From the IMG/VR virus record IMGVR_UViG_3300032103_000014: DNA of 34,817 nucleotides. One strand, written 5' to 3'. Position 1 is the stretch's first letter, and every line of letters starts with the position of its first letter. The position numbers were made by a program, and so were the translations under genes. Shown here in pieces: positions 6,976-34,817 of this stretch. The notes beneath the pieces are model-generated. The model was not told the DNA's origin, searched no databases, and was given only the letters and a program-made list of their open reading frames with translations. This stretch comes from a virus.

Positions 6976-6988
6976 TAAGGAATAAATT

Positions 6989-7249: not shown

Positions 7250-7253
7250 ATAT

Positions 7254-7278
7254 GTAGGGGCACTAGTCCCCTACTTTT
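7254..7278 (+). terminator. rho-independent terminator
   Basis: GTAGGGG (7254-7260), loop CACTAGT, CCCCTAC (7268-7274), then TTTT. Confidence 0.75.
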
Positions 7279-7295
7279 AATGCAAGGAAAATGAA

Positions 7296-8105: not shown

Positions 8106-8410
8106 GAGAAGACCAAAAGCCTGCTATTATTGATCAAGCACAGCAGCAACGTATGGCACGTGACACATTAATCTTGCAAAAGGTTAATCGTGTCAACAGA
8201 GAAGCATTTAAATCCCGCTTCCCGGGTGCCTGCGAGCATATGATGCGTTTAACTAGCGAACGTTTGCAAAGTGTTTTAACTAACAAACCAGCAGACCTAG
8301 CAGATCCAGATACTTGGGTTGCTACAGCAGCAGAAATTCGCGACCTAAGCCAAGCACTTTACTTTCTATCATTGATTAGTAAAGAACATCCTGCAGGAGA
8401 CACACAATGA
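8102..8410 (+). CDS. hypothetical protein (102 aa)
   Basis: ATGA overlap with the upstream stop. Its position two genes upstream of terL makes small terminase possible, but this is unsupported. Confidence 0.5.
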   Translation: MREDQKPAIIDQAQQQRMARDTLILQKVNRVNREAFKSRFPGACEHMMRLTSERLQSVLTNKPADLADPDTWVATAAEIRDLSQALYFLSLISKEHPAGDTQ

Positions 8411-8595
8411 ACATTGCCAGTGATGAAGACAGCAGTTTAGATGTAACAGTTACTATACTAGCAGATAACAAATATCATCTAGTAATTAGGCACAATGAAG
8501 ACATCCTAGGTGATACAATCATTGATTATACTATAGATGCTAATGACTTAGACTATTTTATAGGATATCTACAGGAAAAACTTAAAGGAAATTGA
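8407..8595 (+). CDS. hypothetical acidic protein (62 aa)
   Basis: ATGA overlap with the upstream stop. Asp/Glu-rich. No motif. Confidence 0.45.
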   Translation: MNIASDEDSSLDVTVTILADNKYHLVIRHNEDILGDTIIDYTIDANDLDYFIGYLQEKLKGN

Positions 8596-8596
8596 T

Positions 8597-10210
8597 ATGT
8601 TGGGCACAGATATTATTATGTCTCGTGCCTTGCGTTACGTTGTAGACGAAAACAACTTAACTATAGATGCACTGAAATATATTCCGGGCCCGTTAAAGGC
8701 TGACTTGCAAGACTTGGCACTTAGTATTGCCGATGATATGCAAACAAATCAACTCAAATACTTTAGACCATTTGAGCATCAAAAGAAGTTCTTTGCTACG
8801 GGCACAGCAGACCGCCGCGGCATCCTTGCTGCTAACCGAGTTGGTAAAACAGTTAGTACTTGTTTTGAAACTGCAATGCACTTAACTGGGCGTTATCCAG
8901 ATTGGTGGGAAGGTTATCGCTTTACGCAGCCAATTACTGCTATGGTAGCAGGTGAAGGTTGGAGTCAGGTTGCACTTGTATTGCAAGCAGAACTATTGGG
9001 CACACAGGATATTAAGATTACCGAGCAGTTAGGCACAGGAGCAATACCACGTGATTGCATTGTTGTTGATACAATGCGTAATGATGGTGCTAACTGTATT
9101 GGTTGTGAGATTAAACACGTGAGCGGTGGCAAAAGTTATTTGTTGTTTGCCAACTATACACAGGAAGTTCGTCAGTTGCAGGGTTTTAAACTTAACCTAG
9201 CAGTATTTGATGAACAACCACCGGATGATTTCTTCAGTGAAGTTGTTACACGTACTGCAACTACACAAGGTAAAGTATTATGTTCGTTCACTCCACTAAA
9301 AGGCTTGAACGGATTGGTTAGTAAGTTTTGGAACACAGAACCCGGATATGAATACATTCGTGTAAGTTGGGATGATGTGCCTGAGTACGATCCTTGGGGA
9401 CAACCATTCTTATTAAATGAGACACGTAGACAGTTAGAACGAGATTATTTGCCGCACGAGCGCGAAGCACGTATTGCAGGTAAGCCTGTTATGGGTAAGG
9501 GTGCAGTATTCCAATTGAACAACTGGCCTACATACAAGACAGGTGACTATAACTTTACAACGATGCCTAACTTGCATCGTGTAATTGCACTTGACTTGGG
9601 TTTAGTTAACGACAAAACTGTTATTAGTTTGATGTATTGGGATCCATATGAACGCACAGCATTCTTACATAAGCAAATTGTGGTACAAGGTGTTGAGGAG
9701 GCTGTACCTACTCAGTATATCAACCACTTACTTCGCCCTGAAGTGTTTGGCACTCCTATCGTTTTACCTGCTGATGCTAGCACTAGTGGTAGATACACAA
9801 TGAGCAGCAACAGTATCAGGGAATTGTTTGAGGAATACGAACTAAATGTATATGACAAAGCAATTATGAACCCACCTGATACACAAGGTCGCCAAACAAA
9901 CCACAAAGCATACGGCATTAACCAAATGCGCCAAATGCTAGAAGTAGGTAGTTTGATGGTTAATGAGAACTGCACATACTTTTTGAATGAAGCAAGAAAC
10001 TATTTCGTAGATGAAAAGGGAAGATTTAGCGATCCAGATGACGCCATTGATTCTTGTAGGTACGCACTATTGGCTTGCTTGCAAGGAATTGCTGAGCCTT
10101 GGGACAATAGAACCCCGGCAGAGCGTATGCGAGCACAGCGAGACAGGTATGTAACCAGAGATTACGCATCTAAGCCCGCAATTAAACAAGTTTACAACCC
10201 AGGAAATTAA
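8597..10210 (+). CDS. terL: terminase large subunit
   Basis: 537 aa. Walker-A-like AANRVGKTVS followed by HLTGRYPDWWEG. Walker-B-like LNLAVFDEQPP. A C-terminal nuclease-like region has conserved acidic residues (IALDLG..., DDAIDSCRYAL). It sits upstream of the portal. Confidence 0.88.
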   Translation: MLGTDIIMSRALRYVVDENNLTIDALKYIPGPLKADLQDLALSIADDMQTNQLKYFRPFEHQKKFFATGTADRRGILAANRVGKTVSTCFETAMHLTGRYPDWWEGYRFTQPITAMVAGEGWSQVALVLQAELLGTQDIKITEQLGTGAIPRDCIVVDTMRNDGANCIGCEIKHVSGGKSYLLFANYTQEVRQLQGFKLNLAVFDEQPPDDFFSEVVTRTATTQGKVLCSFTPLKGLNGLVSKFWNTEPGYEYIRVSWDDVPEYDPWGQPFLLNETRRQLERDYLPHEREARIAGKPVMGKGAVFQLNNWPTYKTGDYNFTTMPNLHRVIALDLGLVNDKTVISLMYWDPYERTAFLHKQIVVQGVEEAVPTQYINHLLRPEVFGTPIVLPADASTSGRYTMSSNSIRELFEEYELNVYDKAIMNPPDTQGRQTNHKAYGINQMRQMLEVGSLMVNENCTYFLNEARNYFVDEKGRFSDPDDAIDSCRYALLACLQGIAEPWDNRTPAERMRAQRDRYVTRDYASKPAIKQVYNPGN

Positions 10211-10657: not shown

Positions 10658-10804
10658 ATGGGTAAAGGCAGTGTACCACGTCCCTTTGAAGTACCAAAGG
10701 ACCAATTCCGTGACAATTGGGATAAGATTTTCGGCAAAAAAGACCCTAAAGAAGACAAGCAGGATCCTACTCCTAAAAATACGCTAAATACTACATTAAA
10801 TTAA
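10658..10804 (+). CDS. small conserved-looking phage protein (48 aa), below the ORF-track cutoff
   Basis: It reads ATG at 10658 through TAA at 10802-10804: MGKGSVPRPFEVPKDQFRDNWDKIFGKKDPKEDKQDPTPKNTLNTTLN. TTAGGAG lies upstream. A GKGSxPRPFxV ... F..NWD.IFGKK pattern recurs in small phage ORFs I have seen. Confidence 0.55.
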   Translation: MGKGSVPRPFEVPKDQFRDNWDKIFGKKDPKEDKQDPTPKNTLNTTLN

Positions 10805-17735: not shown

Positions 17736-20700
17736 ATGCCAAGTTTATATGAAACAACCGCAGCCGTAGGTGATGTAGCGTCTAGCGACTTTACAACGCT
17801 TTACAATGCCAGCGGCTTAACTGTACCAAATGCAGGTGCAGGAAGTGTTAGCGGAAACTTAAACGTAGCAGGCAACTTAACAGTTCAAGGTAACAGTCTA
17901 CTAATAGGCGCAGTTACACTACAAAACACATTAAGTTTACCAAACTACACATTTCCATTAGGAGATGGTACAACTGACCAAGTACTAGTAACAGATGGTT
18001 CAGGTAACGTATATTGGCAAGATGTCACTGCTATTCCGGGTGCTGCATATACAATCCAAGCAGATAATGCTACAGGTGGTGCAAACCTAAGTCTAGTAAG
18101 CAGCAGCGGTGTATTTGACAGTGTTAAATTTGCAGGCGCTGGCGGTATCACTGTAAGTCAAGTTGATGCAAGCACTATTGCAATCACTGGTGCAGAACCA
18201 TTGCCAACTGGTACTAAAGGCGATATGTTGTATTATGATGGTACTGATTGGATTGCCTCTACAGAAATTGCAGCAGACGCTAGTGAACAACGTCCAGTAT
18301 TCATTTACAACAACAGCAGTGCAACTGGATCAAGCCCAGTTCGCTTCCGCAAAAACTACGGTGCATCAACTTATACTACAGGTGCAGCAGTAGGCGTAAC
18401 TTATCAACTAGCCAGCAACACACAAACTGCCAGCGGTTTTGGTGCTAACGGCTTTACATATGATGCTAGCGGCAATCATCAGTTCTACGCAACAATCAGC
18501 AGCGACAACTTTACAACTAGCAACAACATTTTGTTAGCAAGTCCAACAGACTTTAAAGTTGATGCAGGTATTTTAACATTAAACAAAGATGTTGCTGGCA
18601 CACCGACATTAGATGCAACATTCCAAGTTGAACGTGGCACTGCAACTAATGCAACATTAGTATGGAACGAAACATTAGACCGTTGGGAGTTTAACAACGA
18701 GTTATATGTAGGCGGAGTAATTTCTACTAGCCACGAATCTATCAGTATGAACGTTGATAGCACAGCGGCTGACAGTGTTTTAAACTTTAAAGGTACTGCA
18801 CAGTATCTAAAGTGGAACAACACACTAAGTCAATTTGAACTTAGCGATAACTTGTATATCAGCACTGCGAACGAAGCGCCTGCTAAGTTAGAACGCAAAA
18901 AAGATTCTACTGATTTACAGTTTGAAGCAAAGAGTGTTTTACAGTTAAACACTCGTGTTACTGATGCACCTAACAACCAAACAGATGATGGTGGTGGCAA
19001 CATTTTATTTGCTAGAACAAGTGGCGCAAGTGGTGGACCAGAAACACTATACGGTAGTTTCCAATTTGACTACTATGGCTCTACTAACACTGCTGAAGCA
19101 AAATTATTATGGAGTAATGACAACTTTACAGAAACAAGTCCGGGTGTATATCCTGGTACGTTTGCGATGCAACAGTGGAACACTACACGTAGTAAGTTTT
19201 TTAATGACAGTCTGTATGTTAATTACACTACTGCCGGTGCTGCATTAGTTGGTATCAACACAGGTGCACCTGCATATACATTAGATGTTAATGGTGCGGC
19301 TCGCATTGGTACAATAGTTGTAAACAGTGTTCCTAACGTCATTGCTACAACTACAGGCGATATTACTATTGCTCCAGCCAGTGCAGTTACTAATGTTACT
19401 GGTGATGTAAACGTTACTGGTGACGTAATAATGAGTGGCGCTCGCTTTGATATCAACAGTCCTCAAGCAGGTCAGTTGTTAACGTATAACGGCACAAGTT
19501 TTGTCAACAGCAGCACAGTTGCTTTTGCTAGCAATACATACCGCCCAACGTTTTTAGGTAATGCCGGTGTATATGGCAGAAACTATAGTGCAGCATCTTT
19601 CCAAAACAACACAGGTGCTACTGCTTATACAACAGGTGATGGATCTGGTATTTTAATTGGTCTAGACAGTGACACTCAAACAGCGTTAAACTTCGGTGCA
19701 TTAAGTGCAACATATGACGCCGCTGGTAACCATACAGTTAGTATCACCAACAGCACTGAAGGTTTTGCACAAGACCAAGCAACTAGCATCACAGGTGGGA
19801 ATACTCTTGTATTCCCAATAGCACACGGCTGGGCAGCGGGCAATCGTGTTGCATTTATGGGTGCTACACAAAGCGGACTAGTTCAATGGACTCAATACTA
19901 CGTTCTAAGCACAGGTTTAACTACTACACAATGTCAATTGAGTTTGACATCAGGTGGTGCAGCAGTTGCATTAACTAACGGTACTGGTTTAAACTTAAAC
20001 TTTACACGTAACACTAACCGATTACTTCGCGTAGATAACACTGCAACATATCTAGCAGGACAGAACTTAACGCTTAATGCATTAAACACAGGTATTGCAG
20101 GTTCTAATGCAAGTATTATTGTTGAGCGCGGAACAAGTGGTGCTGATGCAACTATTACTTGGGACAACACAAACAGTTTCTGGAACTTCAGCAACGATGT
20201 GTTTGCTAGTGGTGCTATTATTGGTAACACTACTATTGCTACAAATGGCGATAACATTTATTTTAATTACGATGATGGCGGCGCCGGTGCTACTAGCAAC
20301 TTAACAGTTCGTCGTGGCACTAACCCAGATGTAAGTGTACGATGGGACGAAACAACTGATCGTTGGGCAACTACTACTGACGGTTCAACATTCATTAACT
20401 TACCTAACCAAGCGTTAGATACAACCAGCGATGTTAATTTTAGTAGTGTCGTATTAGATAATCGTTCTGGTACTGATACGCAAGCGTTAAATACAACTAG
20501 CACCGCAACAGTTGCTATAGCATCTACAACAAGAAACGTACTTAAAGCAGTAATCTACATTACAGATACTGTAACTGGTGCAGTTCACGCAGTAGAAGCA
20601 TTAGCAATGCGTAGTGGCGCAACAGGTATGTTAACAACATACGGTGAAATGTACAGTGTAAGTGCATTGGCTACATTCACAGCAGATGTGTCTGGAGGCA

Positions 20701-20774
20701 GTTTAAGAATACTAGCAACTCCAGCAAGTGCTAACTCAACTGATTTCAGTGCAGTTAGAACAAGTTTAACCTAA
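17736..20774 (+). CDS. tail fibre / tail spike-like protein
   Basis: 1012 aa, Thr/Ser/Asn/Gly-rich. It has repeated fibre motifs: G(T/x)xGQ(V/L)L(V/T)xDG(S/T)G..W-type (GTTDQVLVTDGSGNVYW, GTKGDMLYYDGTDW, QAGQLLTYNGTSF). It also has four W-x-(E/N)T-x-x-x-W/F modules (VWNETLDRWEF, KWNNTLSQFEL, TWDNTNSFWNF, RWDETTDRWAT). Confidence 0.75.
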   Translation: MPSLYETTAAVGDVASSDFTTLYNASGLTVPNAGAGSVSGNLNVAGNLTVQGNSLLIGAVTLQNTLSLPNYTFPLGDGTTDQVLVTDGSGNVYWQDVTAIPGAAYTIQADNATGGANLSLVSSSGVFDSVKFAGAGGITVSQVDASTIAITGAEPLPTGTKGDMLYYDGTDWIASTEIAADASEQRPVFIYNNSSATGSSPVRFRKNYGASTYTTGAAVGVTYQLASNTQTASGFGANGFTYDASGNHQFYATISSDNFTTSNNILLASPTDFKVDAGILTLNKDVAGTPTLDATFQVERGTATNATLVWNETLDRWEFNNELYVGGVISTSHESISMNVDSTAADSVLNFKGTAQYLKWNNTLSQFELSDNLYISTANEAPAKLERKKDSTDLQFEAKSVLQLNTRVTDAPNNQTDDGGGNILFARTSGASGGPETLYGSFQFDYYGSTNTAEAKLLWSNDNFTETSPGVYPGTFAMQQWNTTRSKFFNDSLYVNYTTAGAALVGINTGAPAYTLDVNGAARIGTIVVNSVPNVIATTTGDITIAPASAVTNVTGDVNVTGDVIMSGARFDINSPQAGQLLTYNGTSFVNSSTVAFASNTYRPTFLGNAGVYGRNYSAASFQNNTGATAYTTGDGSGILIGLDSDTQTALNFGALSATYDAAGNHTVSITNSTEGFAQDQATSITGGNTLVFPIAHGWAAGNRVAFMGATQSGLVQWTQYYVLSTGLTTTQCQLSLTSGGAAVALTNGTGLNLNFTRNTNRLLRVDNTATYLAGQNLTLNALNTGIAGSNASIIVERGTSGADATITWDNTNSFWNFSNDVFASGAIIGNTTIATNGDNIYFNYDDGGAGATSNLTVRRGTNPDVSVRWDETTDRWATTTDGSTFINLPNQALDTTSDVNFSSVVLDNRSGTDTQALNTTSTATVAIASTTRNVLKAVIYITDTVTGAVHAVEALAMRSGATGMLTTYGEMYSVSALATFTADVSGGSLRILATPASANSTDFSAVRTSLT

Positions 20775-20791
20775 TAGGGATTGTGTGAACT

Positions 20792-23700
20792 ATGAGTAAC
20801 GAAAAATTTAGAGTCAAATTTGGCTTAGCGGTTGGCGATACAGCCGCTACCATTGATGGCACATCCGGCAATATCTATACTGCCGGCAATGCTACAGTAA
20901 ACAGTAATCTTCAAGTAAACGGAGCAACTACACTAGGTAACGCAGCAGGTGATACTGTTGCCGTTAACGGTAATGTCGCAGGTAACATTACTTTTACAGA
21001 CAATTCAACTACAACTAGCCGCGGTGTTGGTGGTACAGTGGGTGCTACTGACTATTGGAAGTTTGGTGGCGCTGCAACAGGCTCTAACGCTGGTTATGCA
21101 GAAATTGCCACTGGTGACGATGGTACAGAACCAATTTATGTAAGACAGTATACCGCCGGAACAGTAACTAACCAAGCAACTCTTTTAGATGCTAACGGCA
21201 ATACACAACTTCCAGGCGATTTAGTTGTTGGCGGTGGTGATTTAACTGTAACAGGCAATGGCTACATTTACAGTTCAACTGACCTAGCATTACAATTAAC
21301 AGGTCCAGATGTACGCACACCTGGCGACTTAACTGCTGATGGTAACATTATAGGCAACTTGGGCGCACAAGTTGATAAAACTATGGCAGCAGGTGGTATG
21401 GCTGTTGATGCTAACGGTGACGTATTGGTATTCAATTCAACAACCAATACTACACGTCAGCCTGTCGGCGTATTCGTTGACAACACTACACCTGGGCGTC
21501 GTGCAAACGTAATGTTACGTGAGTATGGACAAAACACAGGTGACTTGGCTACTAGCAGTACAGTCGGTCAAGCAACATTTAACTTAGAAGCAAGTCGCGG
21601 CACAGCAGCAGCACCTACAGTAGTTAACGTAAACAACAGTGCAATGGGTGTAATGGCAGCAGGTGGCTGGGATGGTTTACGTTGGACAAGTGAAGCCGGT
21701 GCGGGCGCACCTGGTGTTATTGCTTTCCAAAACACGGAAACTTGGAGTGCTGGCACAGCCGTGTTTACTGGTAGTATCAGTGGTACAACATTAACCGTTA
21801 CAGCAGTTACCAGCGGAAACATTGCAGCAGGTATGTTGTTAACTGGCACAGGTATTCCGGTAGGCTTGTTAATTAGTGCAGTTGGCACAAACACAAACGG
21901 TGGTGTTGGTACATACACTGTTAGCACAAGTGCAACAGTGGCCAGCACAACAATTACAGGTACTGGTACAAATGCCGCTGGTATGCGATTAGTATTGAGT
22001 CAACAGCCAACAGGTATCAAAGCATCTGGTGTAACAAGCCGACAAGCAACAGCAGTTTATAGCAATAACGCTCCTTCAACTACCACAGTTAACAGTGTAA
22101 CAGTTGCTAACGCTCCGGGTGTTACTACAATACTTGGTGTTGTTGACTCGGCAGAAATCACACTAGTAAGCACAGACGGTACTAAAATTTACAAAGGTCG
22201 TGGTGCAAGTCCATTACAGCAAGCCGGCGGACAAATTGTTCACGTTGGTGTTCCAACAGAAGATACTGCAAGTTTTGCTGGTTACATTGACAACGGCGCT
22301 GGTGCAGCAGGTAACACACTAACAGTCACCAGCGTTGTTAGTGGCACTATTAGCATTGGTAGTTTAGTTAACGCTAACGGTGTTCAACCTGCAACATTCA
22401 TTACTGCACTAGGCTCTGGAACGGGCGGTGTTGGTACGTACACTGTTGCAACTACCTACGCTACAGCAGGTCAATTGTTAGGTTCTTCTGGCACACCAGT
22501 TAATATGGTCAGTAGCCCAGACAACTATTCAATGCGTAACTCAAACGTTCTTACAACCAACGCACACCGTAAGAGCACAGTAAGCACACGTAGAGCACCG
22601 TTAAAATCAGGTGACACTGTATACCAATTTGATCACTGGGGACAAAACGGCACTGGTTTTGCTAACACTGGATCTGGTAACCGTGCGGCACGTATGCGTT
22701 ATAGTGCTACTGCCGACTTTACTACAACTAGCACACCTACCAAGTGGGAATTACAACTAACAGCACCTGGTACTGTTACTCCTGCTAACGTTATTTCTGC
22801 ACAAACAACTAACACAACAATTAAGAGTGACACTTATAACTTGCAAACATTTGCAGGCACTAACATTGTCACACTTGCCGCGGGCAACGTTGGATTAGGT
22901 GATGTAAGTGCAGTTAAAATCACCGGTGGTAGTGTTGGACAAGCATTGGTAACAGACGGTGCCGGTAACTTGAGTTGGAGTGCAGGCGGTGGTAATCCAT
23001 TTGACCAAAACTTAAACACAACAGATGACGTTGAATTTAACACAGTGAACATTGCCGGTACAAGTACTATTTCGTGGAGTACCGACGACAACAGTTTACA
23101 ATACACCGTTAACGGTATTAGTGCACAAATCGGTCAAGACACACTTAAAGTTAAAAACGAAACAGGCGCAACTGTAACAAAAGGTACTGTAGTTCGTATC
23201 CTAGGATCAACCGGTACTAATATGACTGTTGGCTTAGCCGATAATACAAACGAAGCAGCCAGTGCAAGTACTATTGGTTTTGCAGCACAGGACATAGTTG
23301 ACAACGCAACTGGTATGGTATTCACTAACGATTACCTAACAGGATTAGATACTAGTGCTATTGCAGCAGGTACACCGATTTGGTTAGGTACTAGCGGACA
23401 ATACACTGCAACTAAGCCAGTGAGCCCGGCACACTTGGTATTTTTAGGTTGGGTTGTTCGCAGTCACGCAACTGAGGGTATCATTTACATTAACGTACAA
23501 AACGGTTGGGAACTAGAAGAACTACACGATGTGTTGATTACAGATCCAGTAGATGGACAAGTATTAACATATGATTCTACAACTGGCTTATGGGTCAACC
23601 AAACTCCAGCAGCAGTGTTGCCCAACTTTATCATTGGTTCTGCAACTTATCCTTGGACTTACGGACCAAACACTATTATAACCGGTGCGGTTAAAAGTAC

Positions 23701-24223
23701 AGCCAGTGTCAGTGTTAACAGCGTTCAGTATCAACCATTGATACTAACAAAACCTATTACTATCACTGACTTGGGCTTATACGTTGGTACTGCAACAACT
23801 CTAGCCAACTGTAACGTAATGATTTACATCAATAGTGTAACTTCAGGTACTAGCGGATGGCAACCAACTGGATTAGTAGCCTACGCCGGTGAAATTACTA
23901 ACATCACTACAACAGGTGCAAAAAGTATTACAGGTTTAAACATTACACTAGAACCAGGATATTACGTAATCGCAGTGCAAATAAGCAACTTTACAGGTAC
24001 ATTTGGTATTAGTTGCGGTATTGGCGCAGTTAATGCATCTAGTAACAGTGTACCAATGTACAGTGATGCTATGGGTGCTGCATTTAATATTAACAACTTA
24101 TGGGCGAGAACCGCTGTTACATACACTAGCGGGACTCCTGCAGCAATCGCTAACTTTACACCAAGCGGATCCGGTCAAGCAGGTAAGAATTTCTTCGTTG
24201 CAATGAAGTATACAAACGCATAA
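20792..24223 (+). CDS. tail fibre / receptor-binding protein
   Basis: 1143 aa. It has the same GxxGQ(A/V)L(V/T)xDxxG..W motifs ([33 protein letters not shown]). There is an internal domain duplication of about 60 aa (nt about 21761-21960 and about 22271-22480, both ending GGVGTYTV). The C-terminus is distinct. Confidence 0.75.
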
Positions 24224-24232
24224 GGACACAAA

Positions 24233-24394
24233 ATGATTAGAATAGAAATTGATGAAGTTTTTGACATACACGGCAATCTTGTAAGCCGCACAGAACGTCA
24301 GGTAGAAGTGCCTGACAACACAATGACCGACGTTGTTGCTGGTTTAACTGAAGAACAGCGTGTCGCGTTGTTACAAGCATTGCAGGGTGTATAA
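24233..24394 (+). CDS. small hypothetical protein (53 aa), below the ORF-track cutoff
   Basis: It reads ATG at 24233 through TAA at 24392-24394: MIRIEIDEVFDIHGNLVSRTERQVEVPDNTMTDVVAGLTEEQRVALLQALQGV. AAGGACA lies upstream. The stop overlaps the next ATG by 1 nt. Confidence 0.5.
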   Translation: MIRIEIDEVFDIHGNLVSRTERQVEVPDNTMTDVVAGLTEEQRVALLQALQGV

Positions 24395-24666
24395 TGAGTC
24401 ACGAAGAACAAAACTTAGCGGCGCACGTGGAGATATGTGCTATTAGATACAAAGGTATCCAGGAGAAGATTGATGGCATTGAAACAAGGATCACTAAAGT
24501 GGAAACTAGTATCGCAGATGTTAAAACTCAAATGCATACCAACTTCGCCGAAATTAAACTTTTACTTGAAAAGCAATCTAATTCACGTGCGGTTCAAGTG
24601 ATTGCTACTATTGGTACTGTAGCGGCTGCTATCATAGGTGTTATAGGGTATATGATACACAAATAA
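24394..24666 (+). CDS. C-terminally membrane-anchored coiled-coil protein, possibly a lysis or holin-like component
   Basis: 90 aa. A helical N-terminal region is followed by one hydrophobic segment, AVQVIATIGTVAAAIIGVIGYMI, then HK. Lies between the fibre genes and the endolysin. Confidence 0.4.
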   Translation: MSHEEQNLAAHVEICAIRYKGIQEKIDGIETRITKVETSIADVKTQMHTNFAEIKLLLEKQSNSRAVQVIATIGTVAAAIIGVIGYMIHK

Positions 24667-24689
24667 CGCTGTCGGGGATAAATTAGTAT

Positions 24690-25019
24690 ATGAGCAAACA
24701 TAAACTAAGAATCCCCGATCCGCGTATAGCAATCAGCAAGCACATTGGCTGGTTAAAAGCCGACGAAGCCGTCACCTTCTCAAGTCCAGAGCCGGATGCT
24801 TATAACTATGCCATCCGTGCTGCAAAGCCTTTAAATTGCTTGGCGCTAGACTATCAAATATTCTACAAACAGCCCAACGACCAATGGTGGAGTGTTTATT
24901 ACGTAGCCGACCAAGACAAAGAAGACTTTATGCGTTGGTTAGGTAATCAGGACTTTGAGGTCTATTGGGACACCAAGTCCGGTGCAACTCTTGCACAACA
25001 GACTGTGGATGTGTTTTGA
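24690..25019 (+). CDS. hypothetical protein (109 aa)
   Basis: ORF with no recognised motif. Its start codon lies in the loop of an 8-bp inverted repeat (24672-24679 / 24711-24718). Confidence 0.55.
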   Translation: MSKHKLRIPDPRIAISKHIGWLKADEAVTFSSPEPDAYNYAIRAAKPLNCLALDYQIFYKQPNDQWWSVYYVADQDKEDFMRWLGNQDFEVYWDTKSGATLAQQTVDVF

Positions 25020-25068
25020 TAAATAACTATGCTGTATTAAAGGCAGCGCATATATCCTTTTGAAGTTT

Positions 25069-25100
25069 ACCCCGGATCAGCAATGGTTCGGGGTTTTTTT
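25069..25100 (+). terminator. rho-independent terminator
   Basis: ACCCCGGATC ... GGTTCGGGGT stem with G-U pairs, followed by TTTTTTT (25094-25100). It lies inside the 5' extension of the track ORF 25060..25554, which argues against that extension. Confidence 0.8.
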
Positions 25101-25104
25101 AATT

Positions 25105-25554
25105 ATGAACTTATCACCACACTTTACACTTGAAGAATTTACAGTAAGCCAAACTGCTACAAGATTGGGCATAACTAATCTCCCAAGCCCTGTTGTTATT
25201 GCCAACTTGCAAAATTTGTGCATCAACTTGTTAGAGCCATTGCGTACTAGACTTGGGCGCAGTATCAAAATTAGCAGTGGCTATCGTTGCAACTTGTTAA
25301 ACGCAAAGATAGGTGGTGCTGACAACAGCCAGCACACTTTTGGTGAAGCAGCCGATATTATTGTTGCTGGTATGACTCCATATGAAGTTGCTTGCACGGT
25401 TAGAGACGAGTTTAACTATGACCAATGCATTTTGGAGTTCGGTGAATGGACGCACTTGAGCCTACGTATGATACCAACTAGCAATAGACGTATGCCATTG
25501 ACTGCAATGAAACGAGATGGTCGTACGGTCTATGTTGGTGGTATACTAAACTAA
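25105..25554 (+). CDS. peptidase M15A-type (zinc D-Ala-D-Ala carboxypeptidase-like) endolysin
   Basis: 149 aa starting at MNLSPHFTLEEFTVSQTA. Contains SGYRC...N...GG..NSQHTFGEAADI and EFGEWTHLS, which is the H-x6-D ... H zinc-site pattern of phage M15 peptidases. The start is moved from the track TTG at 25060 to the ATG at 25105, just after the terminator. Confidence 0.85.
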   Translation: MNLSPHFTLEEFTVSQTATRLGITNLPSPVVIANLQNLCINLLEPLRTRLGRSIKISSGYRCNLLNAKIGGADNSQHTFGEAADIIVAGMTPYEVACTVRDEFNYDQCILEFGEWTHLSLRMIPTSNRRMPLTAMKRDGRTVYVGGILN

Positions 25555-25559
25555 AGTAT

Positions 25560-25589
25560 TAGGTAATACTTTCGTATGTGTTGTATAAT
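25560..25589 (+). promoter_or_regulatory. candidate sigma70-type promoter (TAGGTA - 18 nt - TATAAT)
   Basis: TATAAT lies at 25584-25589 inside the inverted repeat TGTTG/CAACA. TAGGTA lies at 25560-25565 inside the 9-bp-arm palindrome AAAGTATTA..TAATACTTT (25553-25572). Confidence 0.4.
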
Positions 25590-25623
25590 ACAACATAACC
25601 CTATGCAATGTAGGGTCATTAAA

Positions 25624-25652
25624 TAGGTACAAATTCAATAGAGTGTTATAAT
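25624..25652 (+). promoter_or_regulatory. candidate extended -10 promoter (TAGGTA - 17 nt - TGtTATAAT)
   Basis: TG at 25644-25645 and TATAAT at 25647-25652, flanked by AGTGT/ACACT arms. TAGGTA at 25624-25629. The -10 region is nearly the same as that of the upstream promoter candidate. It lies about 38 nt upstream of the ATG at 25690. Confidence 0.5.
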
Positions 25653-25689
25653 ACACTTATGTTCAACAAACAACGCAAGGAGCGTTAAG

Positions 25690-26379
25690 ATGATGTTTCG
25701 CGATGATATGACTGCACTCGGTATTAAACTTAATCAAGCGGTCACAGCAGAATTGGTAATGGAAGGCATTGCCGCTTTTAAGCAAAATAAGAAATACATT
25801 GATTATAGTAGTGATTGGTATATCCAAACCACCGACAAAGAAGTTGTCATTGCTATGAGTGCTACAGATGGTTTCCTATCTGGTTGTGCCCATAACAATT
25901 TTAGCGAAAACAAGTATCGTATCTTTGGCTGGCTGGAATGTTTCTTTGCTATCAAAGGTGTTAAAGCCCGTGACGCTGAATTCAATCACTATGCTGGTTT
26001 TAGTCCTTTTAATCGCGACAAAGATTACACACATTATGGCACAGGCCGAGTTGGGCAATTCTTCCAAACAGTTGAGAGTTTTGGCAACTGGCAAGGTAAA
26101 ACACTCAAGCCAATGATTGAAATCCAAAACTGGCACGGCGACTCTAAACTTAACAAGTTCTATGCTCCAGCAGAAGAATACAGCGACATCGTTGATATCA
26201 CTGAGTATGTTCGCTATGTCAATGAAGACCTAAATCGTCACTTGTATACCGGCGAACTTAATCGTGTGTTTAATCGTTTGCCACGCGAACAAGTTGAAGA
26301 AGTTCTGTTGATAGCAGTGCTCAAGTATGGTCCCGTAAATACTAAAACTTGGTATGATGCAACTAAAGAGGCAGCATAA
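25690..26379 (+). CDS. hypothetical early-region protein (229 aa)
   Basis: RBS AAGGAG 6-7 nt upstream of the ATG. No motif recognised. Confidence 0.65.
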   Translation: MMFRDDMTALGIKLNQAVTAELVMEGIAAFKQNKKYIDYSSDWYIQTTDKEVVIAMSATDGFLSGCAHNNFSENKYRIFGWLECFFAIKGVKARDAEFNHYAGFSPFNRDKDYTHYGTGRVGQFFQTVESFGNWQGKTLKPMIEIQNWHGDSKLNKFYAPAEEYSDIVDITEYVRYVNEDLNRHLYTGELNRVFNRLPREQVEEVLLIAVLKYGPVNTKTWYDATKEAA

Positions 26380-26493
26380 ATGACTACACTACTTGGTATC
26401 TTGTTGGCAATTGCAGTGCCCTTAACCGTGTTAGCACTTGCTGGGTTAGTTGGTGTTTATTTTGCTAAGTTTATCTTTTGGCTTGCACGATGA
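26380..26493 (+). CDS. small single-pass hydrophobic peptide (37 aa), below the ORF-track cutoff
   Basis: The ATG follows the upstream TAA directly: MTTLLGILLAIAVPLTVLALAGLVGVYFAKFIFWLAR. Its TGA (26491-26493) overlaps the ATG at 26490 of the next ORF (ATGA). Confidence 0.5.
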   Translation: MTTLLGILLAIAVPLTVLALAGLVGVYFAKFIFWLAR

Positions 26494-26789
26494 AGTTACC
26501 ATACGCACTACTAAACGCCAGTGCTGACCCAGAAGGCACACTTACAGCATTGACTTGGCTAAAGCAGTTCTACGCCAAATATCCCACGGGTGCTGAACTT
26601 GCCGAAGCACTTTACCAATACCGAAAAGAAAATAATTTAATCGTTGAGCAAGCAGAAAAACGCAAAAAGATAAAACAACTGCAAGAGGAATTAAATGACG
26701 CAGACAATGGAACACCTGTTGATGTACCTGCAACTGGAACAAAATCTGCGGGACCTAAAAAACCTACTCGGCCAACAACTGCTACTTGA
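26490..26789 (+). CDS. hypothetical protein (99 aa)
   Basis: The track starts at the TTG at 26478. I prefer the ATG at 26490 (MKLPYALL...), which is coupled to the upstream peptide. It has a coiled-coil-like KRKKIKQLQEEL stretch and a Pro/Thr/Lys-rich tail. Confidence 0.55.
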   Translation: MKLPYALLNASADPEGTLTALTWLKQFYAKYPTGAELAEALYQYRKENNLIVEQAEKRKKIKQLQEELNDADNGTPVDVPATGTKSAGPKKPTRPTTAT

Positions 26790-26901
26790 GTTCTTGGAAC
26801 TTGCTGTCACAAATGTTATGACAGAGGATAAATAATAGTGTGCAAGCAGGCTTTCTCTCCTTATACTGGCCATAGTGTATTTCCTTTGACCCTGTTTGCA
26901 T

Positions 26902-26933
26902 AATAACCCTGCTAAACCCAGGGTTATTTTTTT
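26902..26933 (+). terminator. rho-independent terminator
   Basis: AATAACCCTG (26902-26911), 7-nt loop, CAGGGTTATT (26919-26928), with the T run extending to 26933. Confidence 0.85.
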
Positions 26934-26962
26934 GCGTTTTTTACCCCATTTACCACTAGTTC

Positions 26963-26992
26963 TTGACAAGCAAGGTAAATACATTATATAAT
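26963..26992 (+). promoter_or_regulatory. sigma70 consensus-hexamer promoter (TTGACA - 18 nt - TATAAT)
   Basis: TTGACA at 26963-26968 and TATAAT at 26987-26992. It lies about 20 nt upstream of the ATG at 27013 (RBS AAGGAGA). Confidence 0.75.
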
Positions 26993-27012
26993 AACACAAA
27001 GGAGAAATCATT

Positions 27013-27447
27013 ATGGCTAATGATCAAACATTACGAAAAGTCAGTGAGTGGCTTAGTAGTTGTCAAAACAGGTTTGCTAATATGCAAGCCGCAGGTTTGG
27101 ATATGAATGGATATCCAGCAATTAAACAAGCAATGGAGAACTTTGATAAAAAGGGCTATTTCTCAGTAGGTGAGATACAGTATCTTTTTAACAGAAGTCA
27201 CCCAAAAGGCGCACTTCCAAAATATAACAAGCACAAAGGCTATCACAAAACAATGGGTGATATGTTAGAGTGCCCGCTCAAAGAACTAATTGATAGTAAC
27301 TTAGTCAATTGGCGTAGTGGGCAAAACGGCGTTATACAGCCTGCACTGATACAGGCAATTAGTGAAGAAACCAGTTGGGAATGGCGTATGGGCAATCTAC
27401 GTGCCAAATATAATACATCATTTAGCGACTTGTTTGATACAAAATGA
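27013..27447 (+). CDS. hypothetical protein (144 aa)
   Basis: Strong RBS and promoter directly upstream. No motif recognised. Confidence 0.65.
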   Translation: MANDQTLRKVSEWLSSCQNRFANMQAAGLDMNGYPAIKQAMENFDKKGYFSVGEIQYLFNRSHPKGALPKYNKHKGYHKTMGDMLECPLKELIDSNLVNWRSGQNGVIQPALIQAISEETSWEWRMGNLRAKYNTSFSDLFDTK

Positions 27448-28250
27448 ATCACTATACTTACTTGCTGTCTACCAATAACAGCAATAACCAAACCATCTAC
27501 TACATCGGTGTTAGGTCCAGTAAGTGTGCTCCAGCCGATGATATCACATATATGGGCAGTTCCAAATTAGTAGACTTTATGCGAACGCTTGATATTAAGT
27601 TTACTAAAGAAATTCTCGCTACATACGAAACCCGCGAACAAGCAGAACTAGGTGAGCAAGAGTTCTTTAATACACTTGAGTGCATTGAACGTGCAGAGTT
27701 CATAAACTTACATAGTCATAAAAACCCATATGAAGTAGGTAGGGCAACAACTAAAATGAGTTACTTCAAGCAGTTGTTCCCGCAACTAAAACCTGGGCAT
27801 TTTGTTGATTCATTTAATAAAATTACACAAGCAGACTTTAAGTTTTGTGTGTTCAAAGGGAACCTATATTGGTACTTTATCAATCACCCTGATAACCTAA
27901 AGCATTATTGGCACACCACTGGAACCAAAACATATTGGCCAGGACGCAGTGACCGGTTACTATCTATTAAACACAGTGAACCAAAATACTACCTAACTGA
28001 TGTTGAAACAGTATCCGGTACACCTTTTGAACAAATACAACAACTTCTAGATTACCATTATGTGAAAGGTCAACGCACACACATACTAGAAACTATTGAA
28101 GAACAAATGAAATTATTAGGTAATAACGAGCGAGAATCTGCTATAGAACTCATAAAACCGCAGATTTTACCCGATAATCGCTATATTTTTAACAGAATTG
28201 TTAAATACAATACAAAGGTAAACAAGCAGTTGACAAAACCAAACTGCTAA
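27444..28250 (+). CDS. GIY-YIG (Seg-like) homing endonuclease
   Basis: 268 aa. The N-terminus reads HYTYLLSTNNSNNQTIYYIGVRS...DDITYMGSSKLVDFMRTLDIKFTKEILATYETREQAELGEQEFF. This matches the xxYxY ... YIG ... Y-x-GS ... F-x-K-E-I-L ... E-x-A ... E pattern of free-standing phage GIY-YIG endonucleases. A long C-terminal region would serve for DNA binding. ATGA overlap with the upstream ORF. Confidence 0.65.
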   Translation: MNHYTYLLSTNNSNNQTIYYIGVRSSKCAPADDITYMGSSKLVDFMRTLDIKFTKEILATYETREQAELGEQEFFNTLECIERAEFINLHSHKNPYEVGRATTKMSYFKQLFPQLKPGHFVDSFNKITQADFKFCVFKGNLYWYFINHPDNLKHYWHTTGTKTYWPGRSDRLLSIKHSEPKYYLTDVETVSGTPFEQIQQLLDYHYVKGQRTHILETIEEQMKLLGNNERESAIELIKPQILPDNRYIFNRIVKYNTKVNKQLTKPNC

Positions 28251-28258
28251 CTTATAAT
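28230..28258 (+). promoter_or_regulatory. perfect sigma70 consensus promoter (TTGACA - 17 nt - TATAAT) firing into the ORF-free gap
   Basis: TTGACA at 28230-28235, a 17-nt spacer, and TATAAT at 28253-28258. It overlaps the last codons and the stop (28248-28250) of the GIY-YIG gene. The predicted start is about 28264-28266. Confidence 0.8.
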
Positions 28259-28264
28259 AATTAA

Positions 28265-28749
28265 ATGGTACAACACTATGGCACATCTAAATTGGGAAAA
28301 AGTTTCTAAGCGTCGTAGCAAAACAAATCATTAGGCACTTCAACCGCTAACAAGCAAAAATGTAATGGGGGTTAAAACACGACCCGCCCGTATACTACAA
28401 AATTTACCTAAGTCAATGGCGTGAAAGGTCTAGACTGAATTCGGTTACCAGGCGATGGCATATGGTTGCTTTAAAAGAGCGTGAAACGAGACGGATGGAT
28501 AATAAAGTTTGTAGTTAGGTCCCATACCAAGGGCATAAACTAGATAAACCTAACTTGGGCTGGCTTACACGTAGAAAATGCGTGTTGCTAACTTATGACT
28601 TCACTTAATGACATCTCTTGTAAAACAATTAATTATTAAACAATTACAACAAAGGATAACAAGCCAAACGCATCACTCCGTTCGCGTTTAGCAATAAAAT
28701 GTATGTCTGCGACGCTCGTCTGCGACATCACTTGCAGCACATACATTTT
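28265..28749 (+). ncRNA. candidate untranslated transcript of about 485 nt running from promoter to terminator. Function unknown
   Basis: It is bounded by the consensus promoter and the terminator-like hairpin at 28696-28749. No ORF of 60 aa or more exists in any frame. Local helices: AGTTAGGT (28513-28520) with ACCTAACT (28548-28555), ACACG (28567-28571) with CGTGT (28581-28585), and AAACGC (28666-28671) with GCGTTT (28684-28689). GCGTGAAA is a direct repeat at 28419 and 28479. No known RNA family recognised. Confidence 0.4.
28696..28749 (+). terminator. terminator-like long hairpin flanked by an A-tract and a T-tract
   Basis: AAAATGTATGT (28696-28706) pairs perfectly with ACATACATTTT (28739-28749). 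CTGC (28707-28710) pairs with GCAG (28834 is not involved; the partner is 28734-28737) across a 1-nt bulge. The apical region carries the direct repeat CTGCGAC twice. T-rich sequence follows. Confidence 0.5.
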
Positions 28750-28770
28750 AACTTGCATTTATTTCTTTTA

Positions 28771-28861
28771 GTTCAATTGAAAGACGAAGTGCAATAAAAA
28801 CACATCAATTGAACGAGCGACAGCGAAGTTCCTGATGTGTTTTTGAGTCCTCGCAGGACTC
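28771..28861 (+). promoter_or_regulatory. cluster of three stem-loops, two overlapping and mutually interfering; attenuator-like
   Basis: Hairpin 1: GTTCAATTGA (28771-28780) with TCAATTGAAC (28805-28814), 10 bp. Hairpin 2: AAAAACACATCA (28796-28807) with TGATGTGTTTTT (28833-28844), 12 bp, with terminator architecture. Hairpin 3: GAGTCCT-CGC-AGGACTC (28845-28861). The right arm of hairpin 1 overlaps the left arm of hairpin 2 and fills its loop. Confidence 0.5.
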
Positions 28862-28953
28862 CATTAAGTGATAACATTACACCTGTTAATTACTACATAA
28901 CTCAAGTAAAATAAACAATTAACTATAAATATATTAAACAAAAAGGAAATGAA

Positions 28954-29505
28954 ATGAGAGGAAGACCAAAAGGCTATAGCCCTGGACCTAGACGAGAAGT
29001 TGACAGCACTTCTGGTGAATGGACTTGGAGCCACGAACGTTTACAAGCCAAAATACAAACAGCAGATGACGCGAGTTGCTGGAATTGGACCGGCGCACGA
29101 GGCCCACAAGGAAACTTATTTGGCGCATATAAAAACGGGCAACAACAAATGACCCAAGCCAATAGACTAATCTACGCCCGTCACACCAACACAGACATTA
29201 CAGGCAAGCACGTGTTTATGACTTGCCGAAACAAACATTGCTGTAACTACAATCATATGACAACACTTGCACAACCAAAGCGAGGCCCACAAACAATTAC
29301 ACTAGTAATCGGCTTCCACGAACAGCAAGCATTAACAGCAGAACAAAACTTACAAGCAAAACTACTGCTCAAAACAGCAGAAGTCATTGACCAAGGAATT
29401 GACCACGAGTTTGAATACAAATGGTTCAAAGTAACAAAAAAGTCTTGGTTCCTAGCACAACTAACAGACCCAGAATCAGCAAGTAAATTTACTATAAGGA
29501 AATGA
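28954..29505 (+). CDS. HNH-fold protein with a substituted catalytic His, likely a nuclease-dead DNA-binding derivative
   Basis: 183 aa. The segment CWNWTGARGPQGNLFGAY...ANRLIYARH...GKHVFMTCRNKHCCNYNHM aligns by eye with the intact HNH at 32537 (CIEWTGSKLPSGYGRL...AHRYVAAQH...GKIVCHKCDNPSCVNIDHL). The first His is replaced by Met, and the D of CDN by R. The N-terminus has an RGRPKG AT-hook-like motif. Confidence 0.6.
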   Translation: MRGRPKGYSPGPRREVDSTSGEWTWSHERLQAKIQTADDASCWNWTGARGPQGNLFGAYKNGQQQMTQANRLIYARHTNTDITGKHVFMTCRNKHCCNYNHMTTLAQPKRGPQTITLVIGFHEQQALTAEQNLQAKLLLKTAEVIDQGIDHEFEYKWFKVTKKSWFLAQLTDPESASKFTIRK

Positions 29506-29506
29506 A

Positions 29507-29728
29507 ATGACAGAGATAAAAGAAATACTGCCTAAAGCAAGTATAACAGCCTATATGATGATTAAACTTACAAAAGAAGGAAACTTCGTAGAACTTAAAC
29601 CCACTTATGGCGCACATAAAGCAATAGGCGGTTATTGGGCAAGTCTAGAAGAAGTGCAACACGAACAAATGGTTAAAGCACTGTTAGAAGAACAGTACAG
29701 AGTCTTTCAAGTAGATTGGAAATTATAA
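29507..29728 (+). CDS. hypothetical protein (73 aa)
   Basis: Preceded by AAGGAAATGAAATG. Closely packed with its neighbours. Confidence 0.55.
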   Translation: MTEIKEILPKASITAYMMIKLTKEGNFVELKPTYGAHKAIGGYWASLEEVQHEQMVKALLEEQYRVFQVDWKL

Positions 29729-30033
29729 TGTTTAACAGCATATTTGGATCAGCAGCACACGCACACGCCGCACAGCAAATGTTCGGCACTCGCGCACATA
29801 ATAGCCCACAAGGCTTGGCTAATCAATCAAGTCTAGCACAGCAACAAGCAAATACATACAGTCAAGGGCTACTACAAAGTCAACTGTATAATCAAATGTT
29901 AAATGCATCACGCGGCAAACCACGTTATGTGTTTAATGATATTGAATGTGCAACACTACAAGAATTCGCTCAATTGATGTTCCCAGACGATAAAGAAAGT
30001 CAAATGATGCTAATACTAAAACACGGAGCATAA
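29728..30033 (+). CDS. hypothetical Gln-rich protein (101 aa)
   Basis: I prefer the ATG at 29728 (MFNSIFGS...), which overlaps the upstream TAA by 1 nt, over the track TTG at 29716. Confidence 0.5.
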   Translation: MFNSIFGSAAHAHAAQQMFGTRAHNSPQGLANQSSLAQQQANTYSQGLLQSQLYNQMLNASRGKPRYVFNDIECATLQEFAQLMFPDDKESQMMLILKHGA

Positions 30034-30037
30034 AGCA

Positions 30038-30301
30038 ATGGCAAGAAATGGACCCACAATAATATTAGAACAAGAACAAGATACAATAACACTACAGATA
30101 ACAGAAGCCAGTGTAATGTATCAACTAACATATAAAAACAAGCCTTTTGGAATTAGAAGACTAGTACCTGGATTAGGCACATTAAAGAAAGTCTACGGTA
30201 AGACTACATACGACAATGAAGGTAGTGCAAGAGCAACTACTCGCAAACTAAACAAAACGTTCAACACACAAGACTTCTCATACAAGAAGATTACGTTTTG
30301 A
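30038..30301 (+). CDS. hypothetical protein (87 aa)
   Basis: ORF in a tightly packed + strand series. No motif. Confidence 0.5.
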   Translation: MARNGPTIILEQEQDTITLQITEASVMYQLTYKNKPFGIRRLVPGLGTLKKVYGKTTYDNEGSARATTRKLNKTFNTQDFSYKKITF

Positions 30302-30302
30302 T

Positions 30303-30557
30303 TTGGAACCATCATTTACCATACATATAATGCAACCATTTACAACACCCCTACCAGGAAGAACACTTGCTAAAAAGTTCGGCCCTAACATTGTTGATCG
30401 CGAAGATTACAAAATGCACATACTATTAAGAGAATGGAAGCCAGGACTGTTTGAGATTCTCATTGAACGATGGATGCCAGAAACAGGTTGGACCAGCACA
30501 CAAATACTAGCAGACACAGAAGAACTAGAGCGTATTCGTCAAGTACTGGGCTGCTAA
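30303..30557 (+). CDS. hypothetical protein (84 aa; start uncertain, TTG at 30303 or ATG at 30330)
   Basis: ORF in series. Neither candidate start has a clear RBS. Confidence 0.4.
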   Translation: MEPSFTIHIMQPFTTPLPGRTLAKKFGPNIVDREDYKMHILLREWKPGLFEILIERWMPETGWTSTQILADTEELERIRQVLGC

Positions 30558-34474: not shown

Positions 34475-34817
34475 ATGAAAAAGAAATCAACTCACTACCA
34501 AATTCCGGACGTTACAGTATATGATGCAGACGGAAAGCCTTTAACAGGCCGAGCAGCCGCTCGTGCTCTTAATGCTTATCTAGCCCATATGGGTAGAGGA
34601 CACGACACGCTAGTTGCTCACATTAACGAAGATGAAGCAGAAATGCTTAAAGATGCCGGAGGTTCGGGCGCAGTTAACCCGCACACTGGTATGATTGAGT
34701 TTGACGACGGCGGCGATGGAGGCGGAGATGGCGGCGGCGATGGCGGCGGCGATGGCGGCGGAGATGGCGGCGGAGATGGCGGCGGAGCATCTGGCGACTC
34801 TGGTGGTGATTCAGGAT
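34475..34817 (+). CDS. 5' part of the Gly/Asp-rich protein, continuing at base 56 (equivalent to base 1 after removing the 55-nt overlap)
   Basis: ATG at 34475. The N-terminal domain reads MKKKSTHYQIPDVTVYDADGKPLTGRAAARALNAYLAHMGRGHDTLVAHINEDEAEMLKDAGGSGAVNPHTGMIEFDD, then (DGGG)x6. The frame stays open to the window end and is in frame with bases 1..852. Confidence 0.7.
   Translation, partial: MKKKSTHYQIPDVTVYDADGKPLTGRAAARALNAYLAHMGRGHDTLVAHINEDEAEMLKDAGGSGAVNPHTGMIEFDDGGDGGGDGGGDGGGDGGGDGGGDGGGASGDSGGDSG
34715..34786 (+). repeat. coding 12-nt tandem repeat (GATGGNGGCGGN x6) encoding (DGGG)6
   Basis: Six consecutive units are visible. The last three are identical (GATGGCGGCGGA). The last two units are also present at bases 1-24. 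Confidence 0.9.
34763..34817. repeat. 55-bp terminal overlap identical to bases 1-55 (circular closure / assembly overlap)
   Basis: Base-by-base identity checked by eye. The overlap comprises 24 nt of the DGGG repeat plus 31 nt of unique sequence (GCATCTGGCGACTCTGGTGGTGATTCAGGAT). Confidence 0.9.

Follow-up and report, generated by a model that had tools for sequence, protein, structure and literature searches.

A conserved structured RNA in a variable early slot of a closed podovirus genome that lacks recognizable replication genes

That small tailed phages can depend on their host for replication is established in outline, and such replication is usually anchored by a recognizable initiator, loader or primase-helicase. 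Origins that depend on transcription are represented by ColE1 RNA II, the T4 R-loop origins and the transcribed ori of lactococcal phage c2, and the put RNA of HK022 is a processive antiterminator that acts on host RNA polymerase. In this report, we analyze IMG/VR virus record IMGVR_UViG_3300032103_000014, a stretch of 34,817 nt (the window), with emphasis on its early-type region (positions 25690-30557) and on a 703-nt gap in that region that is free of open reading frames (ORFs). The window represents a complete podovirus genome, lytic in appearance, and its family is large, uncultivated and mostly freshwater, with genomes of 33-37 kb. It encodes no replication protein that we could recognize, and its gap contains a conserved structured RNA. 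The coordinates of all features are listed in the table.

For small double-stranded DNA viruses, it has been reported that replication proteins are encoded less often as genomes shrink, the smallest size class being <40 kbp (PMC4889955). Podoviruses of ~35 kb that have no DNA or RNA polymerase have been described among the pelagiphages (Skadi and HTVC010P-type phages), and their reliance on host polymerases was inferred in that work (PMC10504331). The premise of the first-pass annotation of this DNA, that a primase/helicase or a polymerase is usual in podoviruses of this size, is thus too strong. Small phages without their own polymerases are already known (PMC4889955, PMC10504331), and a host-reliant window would be a variation on this established theme.

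The first 55 bases of the window exactly repeat its last 55, which indicates a circular assembly with a true length of 34,762 bp. The join falls within a 12-nt GATGGCGGCGGA repeat of the gene for a Gly/Asp-rich DGGG-repeat protein, and the ORF at 34475 reads on in frame across the junction into positions 1-852. The order of genes at the junction (phosphoribosyltransferase, DGGG-repeat protein, 250-aa protein) is the same in a relative, G007. Given the identical ends and this conserved order, we regard the genome as closed, with repeat copies likely to be all that the assembly might be missing.

All genes except one lie on the plus strand. PHROGs profiles were applied to every coding-strand ORF of at least 48 aa except 6542-6700, 10658-10804, the 37-aa ORF and the end piece at 34475; the Pfam scan (30 ORFs) and the NCBIfam scan (10 ORFs) were aimed at non-structural ORFs. 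The families matched in virion, packaging and lysis functions are the large terminase (TerL), portal, major head protein, virion structural proteins and an M15 endolysin. Beyond these, we found an intact HNH endonuclease (32531), an HNH-fold protein (28954), a weak homing-endonuclease match (27444), a ferritin/Dps-like protein and a phosphoribosyltransferase, whereas the minus-strand GNAT-like ORF at 5626-6159 gave no match of its own in PHROGs or Pfam. None of these scans detected polymerase (including family A or B DNA polymerase and single-subunit RNA polymerase), primase, helicase, single-stranded DNA-binding protein (SSB), RNA polymerase, integrase, recombinase or repressor families. Tyrosine or serine recombinases, Erf/RecT/Rad52-type annealases and CI/Cro helix-turn-helix (HTH) proteins were likewise missing from them, with the proviso that short HTH proteins may escape such scans. 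When all six frames were searched with a regular expression, a single genuine Walker A motif emerged, in TerL, and the remaining matches to the pattern fall in low-complexity or non-coding frames; a replicative helicase or AAA+ loader (SF3/DUF5906, DnaB or DnaC-like) is therefore not represented by any P-loop outside TerL or by any helicase family in the scans. No tRNA or tmRNA genes were found.

Since the scans yielded no such family and the only genuine P-loop is that of the terminase, the lack of recognized replication genes is confirmed. The first-pass annotation had proposed a closed genome without recognizable replication, transcription, recombination or integration genes, and this proposal is borne out by the profile scans, the Walker A scan and the 55-nt overlap. 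The early-block ORFs and the ORF-free gap are present where it had placed them. Sensitive profile and structure searches, which it had named as the way to refute the proposal, produced no ordinary replication protein in PHROGs, Pfam, NCBIfam or PDB profiles or from two AlphaFold models, and its suggestion that the phage relies on host replication machinery is the best reading of these negative searches.

To place the genome among its relatives, we used its 651-aa virion protein, which retrieved 16 IMG/VR loci on contigs of 11-37 kb (8 of the 16 at 33-37 kb); ten relative records were taken whole (G001-G010). CheckV rates five of the ten as 100% complete, and three of those five have direct terminal repeats according to IMG/VR. 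Nearly all ten share with the window, at ~26-95% identity, the 117-, 52-, 92-, 86-, 269- and 102-aa ORFs upstream of TerL, as well as TerL, portal, scaffold-position protein, capsid and the 193-, 400-, 651- and 293-aa proteins. Low-complexity virion-type proteins, Dps and the GNAT-like ORF are also present in nearly all. This core does not vary, whereas the contents of a slot bounded by the lysis genes and the conserved HNH-fold gene change from relative to relative, and at least eight different contents were seen downstream of the 144-aa gene across 35 loci.

In four of the ten relatives, the slot is occupied by a Prim-Pol-type primase and a DUF5906 helicase. G001 and G002 each have a GIY-YIG gene, a Prim-Pol gene (PF09250, E 2e-10 and 4e-17) and a DUF5906 SF3-type helicase of 542-550 aa. 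In G005, a 558-aa DUF5906 helicase is accompanied by a Prim-Pol gene that is interrupted by the contig end, and the assignment is weak in G007, which has a GIY-YIG gene, a 586-aa DUF5906 helicase and a 304-aa ORF with a weak PriCT-2 match. The other relatives examined for these genes (G003, G004, G008, G009 and G010) gave no DUF5906 match (by family search in G008-G010) and no tblastn match to the primase or helicase of their relatives. Among those larger early ORFs of these five that were scanned with Pfam or PHROGs, only methyltransferases, a glycosyltransferase and weak HTH matches were identified. G004 and G009 are complete, with direct terminal repeats; in these two and in G010, the larger early ORFs that were scanned include no recognized replication family. 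When the Prim-Pol and helicase proteins of the relatives (three helicases) were compared with the window by tblastn, nothing was found: the best E value for the G001/G002 Prim-Pol was 1.1, and PF09250 is absent by Pfam. No recognizable DNA or RNA polymerase was found in any sampled member of the family.

A sibling genome, metagenome contig JACCED010361177.1 (L048; 35,439 bp), shares four segments with the window, at 91-94% identity, and differs from it in two blocks. In place of window positions 25576-26365, with the 229-aa gene, the sibling has several small ORFs. In place of positions 27443-28912, which hold the GIY-YIG-like gene and nearly the whole gap, it has two ORFs, of 73 aa (zinc-ribbon-like) and 358 aa. 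The match of the window's 268-aa GIY-YIG-like protein to PHROGs is weak, and Pfam did not report PF01541; its YTY...YYIG...R...E pattern was recognized by reading.

The 358-aa family is also present in G006, L004 and L066, and matches nothing in Pfam, PHROGs, NCBIfam or PDB. By reading, its members contain the stretches NYDIVC (D161), KKMLNRLFQGG (K213) and EHDGW (D324), spaced by 52 and 111 residues, and a 514-aa ORF in the same slot of L073 contains SIDFSVC, TAKRILTAIGFGA and THDCV, spaced by ~52 and 125. The order and spacing are similar to those of motifs A, B and C of T7 DNA polymerase (D475, K522 and D654, spaced by 47 and 132). Comparisons of the 358-aa family by hhalign with the relatives' Prim-Pol, T7 RNA polymerase and T7 DNA polymerase were not significant; residues 199-262 were aligned with the motif-B region of T7 DNA polymerase at a probability of 0.13. 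The resemblance of these orphans to family A DNA polymerases, which is seen in short motifs, is therefore a lead only.

The gap itself has the properties of a structured RNA locus. Its predicted transcript folds better than all of 20 shuffled sequences (z = -4.5), and four metagenome loci retain the RNA core at 70-81% conservation. Homologues were sought with nhmmer, and a degenerate 23-nt pattern derived from the RNA identified 20 IMG/VR contigs, 19 of which have most of the element and one of which is cut at the end of the locus. In the alignment of 17 sequences, four helices comprising 16 base pairs are 100% paired, and 8 of these pairs covary; none of 500 shuffled alignments was as good, and controls in which the alignment was slid pair at ≤45%. 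The blocks GGGGTTAAAACAsGACCC, CCAAGGgcATAAACATGATAAAC and TGcGTGTTGCTAA are invariant and are separated by variable hairpin insertions; the RNA ranges from ~230 to 320 nt among its occurrences (for example, L078:567-826, L050:1513-1764 and L089:9110-9371). The arrangement was found again in at least five other contigs (L050, L056, L057, L078 and L089), and the RNA is always on the same strand as the adjoining small early-type ORFs. Many contigs that carry it have no protein similarity to the window phage, and there the RNA directly follows a large, late-looking gene.

Rfam 15 gave no match at gathering scores in the whole window and none at E values up to 5 in positions 26900-29100. A group I intron or other known RNA was rejected for lack of an Rfam match, and blastx of the gap against the proteins of all relatives gave nothing that would indicate a decayed gene.

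Exactly two perfect TTGACA-N17/18-TATAAT sites occur in the window, where 0.02 are expected, and both are in the early block; one precedes the 144-aa gene and the other is directed into the gap. Exact-pattern scans for the latter in IMG/VR and JGI contigs found none. The region that follows the endolysin gene contains the inverted repeats GTTGTATAATACAAC (25580-25594) and AGTGTTATAATACACT (25642-25657), 60 nt apart and upstream of the 229-aa gene, and is present in duplicate in the sibling. These repeats resemble operators that overlap -10 elements. The region as a whole is like a promoter or operator, and the early region probably starts here. Together, the perfect promoters, a terminator-like hairpin and the TATAAT repeats fit transcription by the host sigma-70 RNA polymerase.

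We consider it probable that the phage uses the host sigma-70 RNA polymerase and the host replisome, and that an orphan early protein or the promoter-plus-RNA locus directs them. Under this model, host RNA polymerase would transcribe the phage and the host replisome would copy its DNA, while the factor that steers this machinery to phage DNA would be something other than an ordinary initiator: either an orphan early protein or, in cis, the promoter-plus-RNA locus. The slot would then be an exchangeable replication cassette, filled by Prim-Pol and an SF3-type helicase, by the 358-aa orphan, or by the orphan genes and RNA of the window. Several points weigh against this interpretation. Missing matches do not prove missing function, at least seven early ORFs and several core ORFs are still dark (two have been folded), and the phage is known from its genome alone. 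Also, to recruit the host replisome, phages normally require one element or more, and none was recognized in the window. The DnaA-box consensus TTWTNCACA, which is proteobacterial, occurs once in the window, versus 5.65 occurrences expected from shuffles, and not at all in the gap. This under-representation, and the lack of any box in the gap, lend no support to a DnaA-type origin.

Both an RNA-based origin and an antitermination leader are compatible with the evidence on the RNA. It could be a regulatory early leader unrelated to replication, such as a processive antiterminator of the put type that works on host RNA polymerase. A consensus early promoter immediately precedes it, terminator-like hairpins (28796-28844) and early genes follow, and in unrelated phages it heads early regions with whose small ORFs it is co-oriented. 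However, it is far larger than known put elements and matches no Rfam family, and we regard this role as unlikely. It is quite unlikely that the locus at 28230-28953 is instead a cis-acting origin that is primed or opened by transcription and stands in for protein cassettes. The perfect promoter, the transcript fold with its covarying conserved core, the location in the lowest-GC kilobase of the genome (GC 0.361) and the occupation of the same slot as the sibling's 358-aa gene and the relatives' Prim-Pol and helicase would all suit such an origin. Yet contigs that share no protein similarity with this phage carry the RNA too, and it adjoins other slot genes in L050, so it is not strictly an alternative to them. 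Moreover, a conserved, tertiary-looking fold with invariant loops is not known to be required of primer RNAs, and the gap has neither DnaA boxes nor, beyond short AT-rich repeats, iterons. The broader proposal that the RNA is a new class of phage replication determinant, an origin or primer that substitutes for protein cassettes and is common to unrelated phages, strikes us as very unlikely.

Two further explanations concern proteins. Ordinary replication proteins that are too divergent for detection might be among the dark ORFs (229, 99, 144, 73, 105, 87, 84, 117, 269 and 102 aa), as the relatives' 358- and 514-aa slot proteins match no database and yet carry the triad resembling that of family A DNA polymerases. 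The candidates in the window are, however, all ≤269 aa and without a P-loop, the confident 144-aa model has no PDB or BFVD neighbor, and the 229-aa protein yields only a generic fold at its N-terminus, gives negative profile comparisons with the Prim-Pol and 358-aa families and is dispensable in the sibling; we see little likelihood in this explanation. Finally, the window could be a replication-defective or helper-dependent variant, in which a homing-endonuclease cassette displaced a replication gene and siblings co-infect, or the contig could be a chimera of a population. The presence of 73- and 358-aa genes in the sibling where the window has a GIY-YIG-like gene and the RNA would agree with such a loss. 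But the RNA arrangement recurs on other contigs, several complete relatives with terminal repeats also have no such gene, and the exchanged segment stops at gene boundaries or close to them (27443 and 28912), as in ordinary module exchange. We therefore judge a defective or chimeric genome to be highly improbable.

If an early protein does recruit the host machinery, the 144-aa protein is the best candidate initiator and the 183-aa HNH-fold protein, as a DNA-binding protein, the second. The 144-aa family has 48 clusters, with 24 representatives among 1.84e9 proteins; 22 of the 24 are stand-alone proteins of 76-153 aa, and the other two are long proteins with multiple stretches. Its AlphaFold2 model is confident (pLDDT 89.3, pTM 0.83), and Foldseek and VIA-align searches of PDB and BFVD gave no structural neighbor. 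Among the loci sampled, the gene never occurs together with a Prim-Pol or helicase gene, and the protein is a candidate host-takeover or replication-recruiting factor. A possible relationship to the 142-aa ORF of G008 was not significant by hhalign. The gene for the 183-aa protein is at the distal edge of the variable slot and has homologues in G001, G002, G004-G008, L045, L047 and others. By reading, FMTCRN stands in place of the H-x-C-D-N element, so its catalytic His appears to be replaced.

The first-pass annotation had also put forward the 229-aa and 269-aa ORFs as possible initiators, and had seen an early-type home for replication functions both in 25690-30557 and in 6180-8595. The former region retains this status, with its two perfect sigma-70 promoters and hypervariable slot. 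The latter does not: it is conserved beside the terminase gene in all ten relatives, and is therefore a part of the core and not an early module. Its 269-aa ORF, which keeps this position in 10 of 10 relatives, also has a homologue upstream of TerL in phage MW202484.1 and so travels with the packaging and virion module, and a role as initiator is not borne out. The 229-aa gene is an unlikely initiator and rather an accessory gene, because it has few homologues (eight are known) and is replaced by other small ORFs in the ~93% identical sibling. Its AlphaFold2 model has only a generic ferredoxin-like N-terminus, with no informative neighbor by Foldseek or VIA-align, and hhalign found nothing in common with the 358-aa family or with the relatives' Prim-Pol alignment (probability 0.5%). 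Searches of the ESM Atlas with the 229- and 269-aa proteins gave no usable match, and PDB profile searches with the 229-, 144-, 269-, 117- and 358-aa proteins or families gave nothing below E 0.09.

For five of the seven ORFs of the terminase-proximal block (117, 52, 92, 269 and 102 aa), almost all relatives whose sequence extends to the block have a homologue. One relative lacks the 86-aa ORF; for the 62-aa ORF, tblastn detected a homologue in a single relative of the ten, and blastp a second, weak one. Pfam, NCBIfam and PDB searches with the ORFs of this block gave no match; the small terminase may be among them. Public data contain at least 1178 clusters of the 269-aa family at 90% identity; the lineage is very abundant, and uncultivated. 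A near-identity DNA search with 25 kb of the window found no match among GenBank phages.

Among the smaller early genes, the 37-aa ORF is 86% conserved in the sibling, and the 99-aa ORF is kept there and is also present in G006, L066 and L075. The largest unexplained ORF of the window encodes 896 aa (1651-4341); it is of low complexity, lies among virion-type genes and matches no family. By reading, its ESGNNPN...GxYGL stretch resembles a lytic transglycosylase motif of the sort carried by internal virion proteins that are ejected. Two gene orders exist in the family. The window has its fibre, lysis and early genes (17736-30557) between the 400-aa and 651-aa genes, whereas in G003, G004 and G009 only one to three ORFs separate the 651-aa virion gene from the preceding 400-aa homologue, and the variable early block is between the GNAT-like/HNH genes and the 117-aa gene. 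The variable regions of relatives also contain a DNA methyltransferase gene just before TerL, a second methyltransferase and a family-1 glycosyltransferase, which look like anti-restriction or DNA-modification cargo.

Table. Features of the window and of related loci, with positions (a prefix denotes a locus outside the window), strand and remarks
Feature	Position	Strand	Remarks
Assembly overlap	1-55	.	Same sequence as 34763-34817
Conserved core block	6180-8595	+	Upstream of large terminase; 117, 52, 92, 86, 269, 102 and 62 aa
Large terminase	8597-10210	+	phrog_2 E 6e-25; Walker A AANRVGKT; sole P-loop NTPase of genome
Intergenic region after endolysin gene	25555-25689	+	Two TATAAT-centered short inverted repeats; by reading
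229-aa orphan gene	25690-26379	+	Absent from ~93% identical sibling
37-aa membrane ORF	26380-26493	+	Hydrophobic; overlaps start codon of 99-aa ORF (ATGA); by reading
99-aa ORF	26490-26789	+	103 aa from TTG start at 26478
Intrinsic-terminator-like hairpin, then T run	26902-26928	+	Ahead of 26963 promoter
Perfect TTGACA-18-TATAAT promoter	26963-26992	+	Before 144-aa gene; pattern scan
144-aa orphan early gene	27013-27447	+	Behind perfect promoter 26963-26992
268-aa GIY-YIG-like, homing-endonuclease-type gene	27444-28250	+	phrog_314 "homing endonuclease" E 5.6e-4, residues 1-105
Perfect TTGACA-17-TATAAT promoter	28230-28258	+	Directed into 703-nt gap; pattern scan
ORF-free gap, 703 nt	28251-28953	.	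Between 268-aa and 183-aa genes
Conserved structured RNA, ~266 nt	28329-28595	+	Inside gap; 17-sequence alignment
183-aa HNH-fold protein	28954-29505	+	phrog_1872 E 2.6e-10, phrog_826 E 1.2e-9
Four small orphan ORFs, 73, 105, 87 and 84 aa	29507-30557	+	Partly conserved in relatives
358-/514-aa slot orphans	L048:5632-6708, L005:6954-8024, L004:870-1904, L073:594-2138		D / K...(F/G)xG / HD triad
Modification cargo of relatives	L037:3425-4663 (G009), L039:3273-3911 (G010), L030:7781-8911 (G004)		

Among described phages, the HTVC010P-type pelagiphages and Polarivirus skadi resemble the window in their size of ~35 kb, podovirus-type structural genes, M15 peptidase endolysin, sigma-70-type promoters and lack of a phage DNA or RNA polymerase (PMC10504331). 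Unlike the window, in which neither is detectable, Skadi is reported to encode a lambda-like helicase loader and transcriptional regulators (PMC10504331). Nor are pelagiphages close to the window, as a capsid tblastn search returned eight phage records and no pelagiphage. The closest annotated GenBank phage is MW202484.1 (Podoviridae sp. ctfne034, 41.8 kb), with capsid, terminase and portal 61%, 52% and 45% identical and with the 269-aa homologue in the same position, despite a lambdoid-type early region (Erf, SSB, Cro, RusA and HTH annotated) that is partly on the opposite strand; none of these early genes is present in the window. The Prim-Pol and SF3 (D5/P4-alpha-type, DUF5906) cassettes of G001 and G002 occupy the slot that holds the orphan genes of the window, in phages whose virion proteins are 70-95% identical to those of the window and in which a GIY-YIG gene adjoins the cassette too; neither cassette gene has left a trace in the window by tblastn or Pfam.

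The ColE1 RNA II, T4 R-loop and c2 origins share with the window a strong promoter, a structured non-coding transcript and AT-rich DNA, and they require no initiator protein encoded by the element. The window RNA has no sequence or Rfam similarity to them, the likeness being one of promoter and predicted structure, and to our knowledge, a conserved covarying core common to unrelated phages is not a described property of these origins. Genomes that are ~93% identical differ exactly at the replication slot, and several complete members of the family hold nothing recognizable there, so that they provide natural, isogenic-like comparisons for defining the minimum that a phage requires to capture a host replisome. 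They also define three concrete unknowns: the 144-aa protein, the 358-/514-aa orphans with motifs like those of family A DNA polymerases, and the structured RNA missing from Rfam. Compared with the known systems, the new elements for which we present evidence are that the replication function of this phage lineage resides in a cassette open to exchange, that material devoid of any recognizable replication function can take its place, and that one such content of the slot is a widespread structured RNA.

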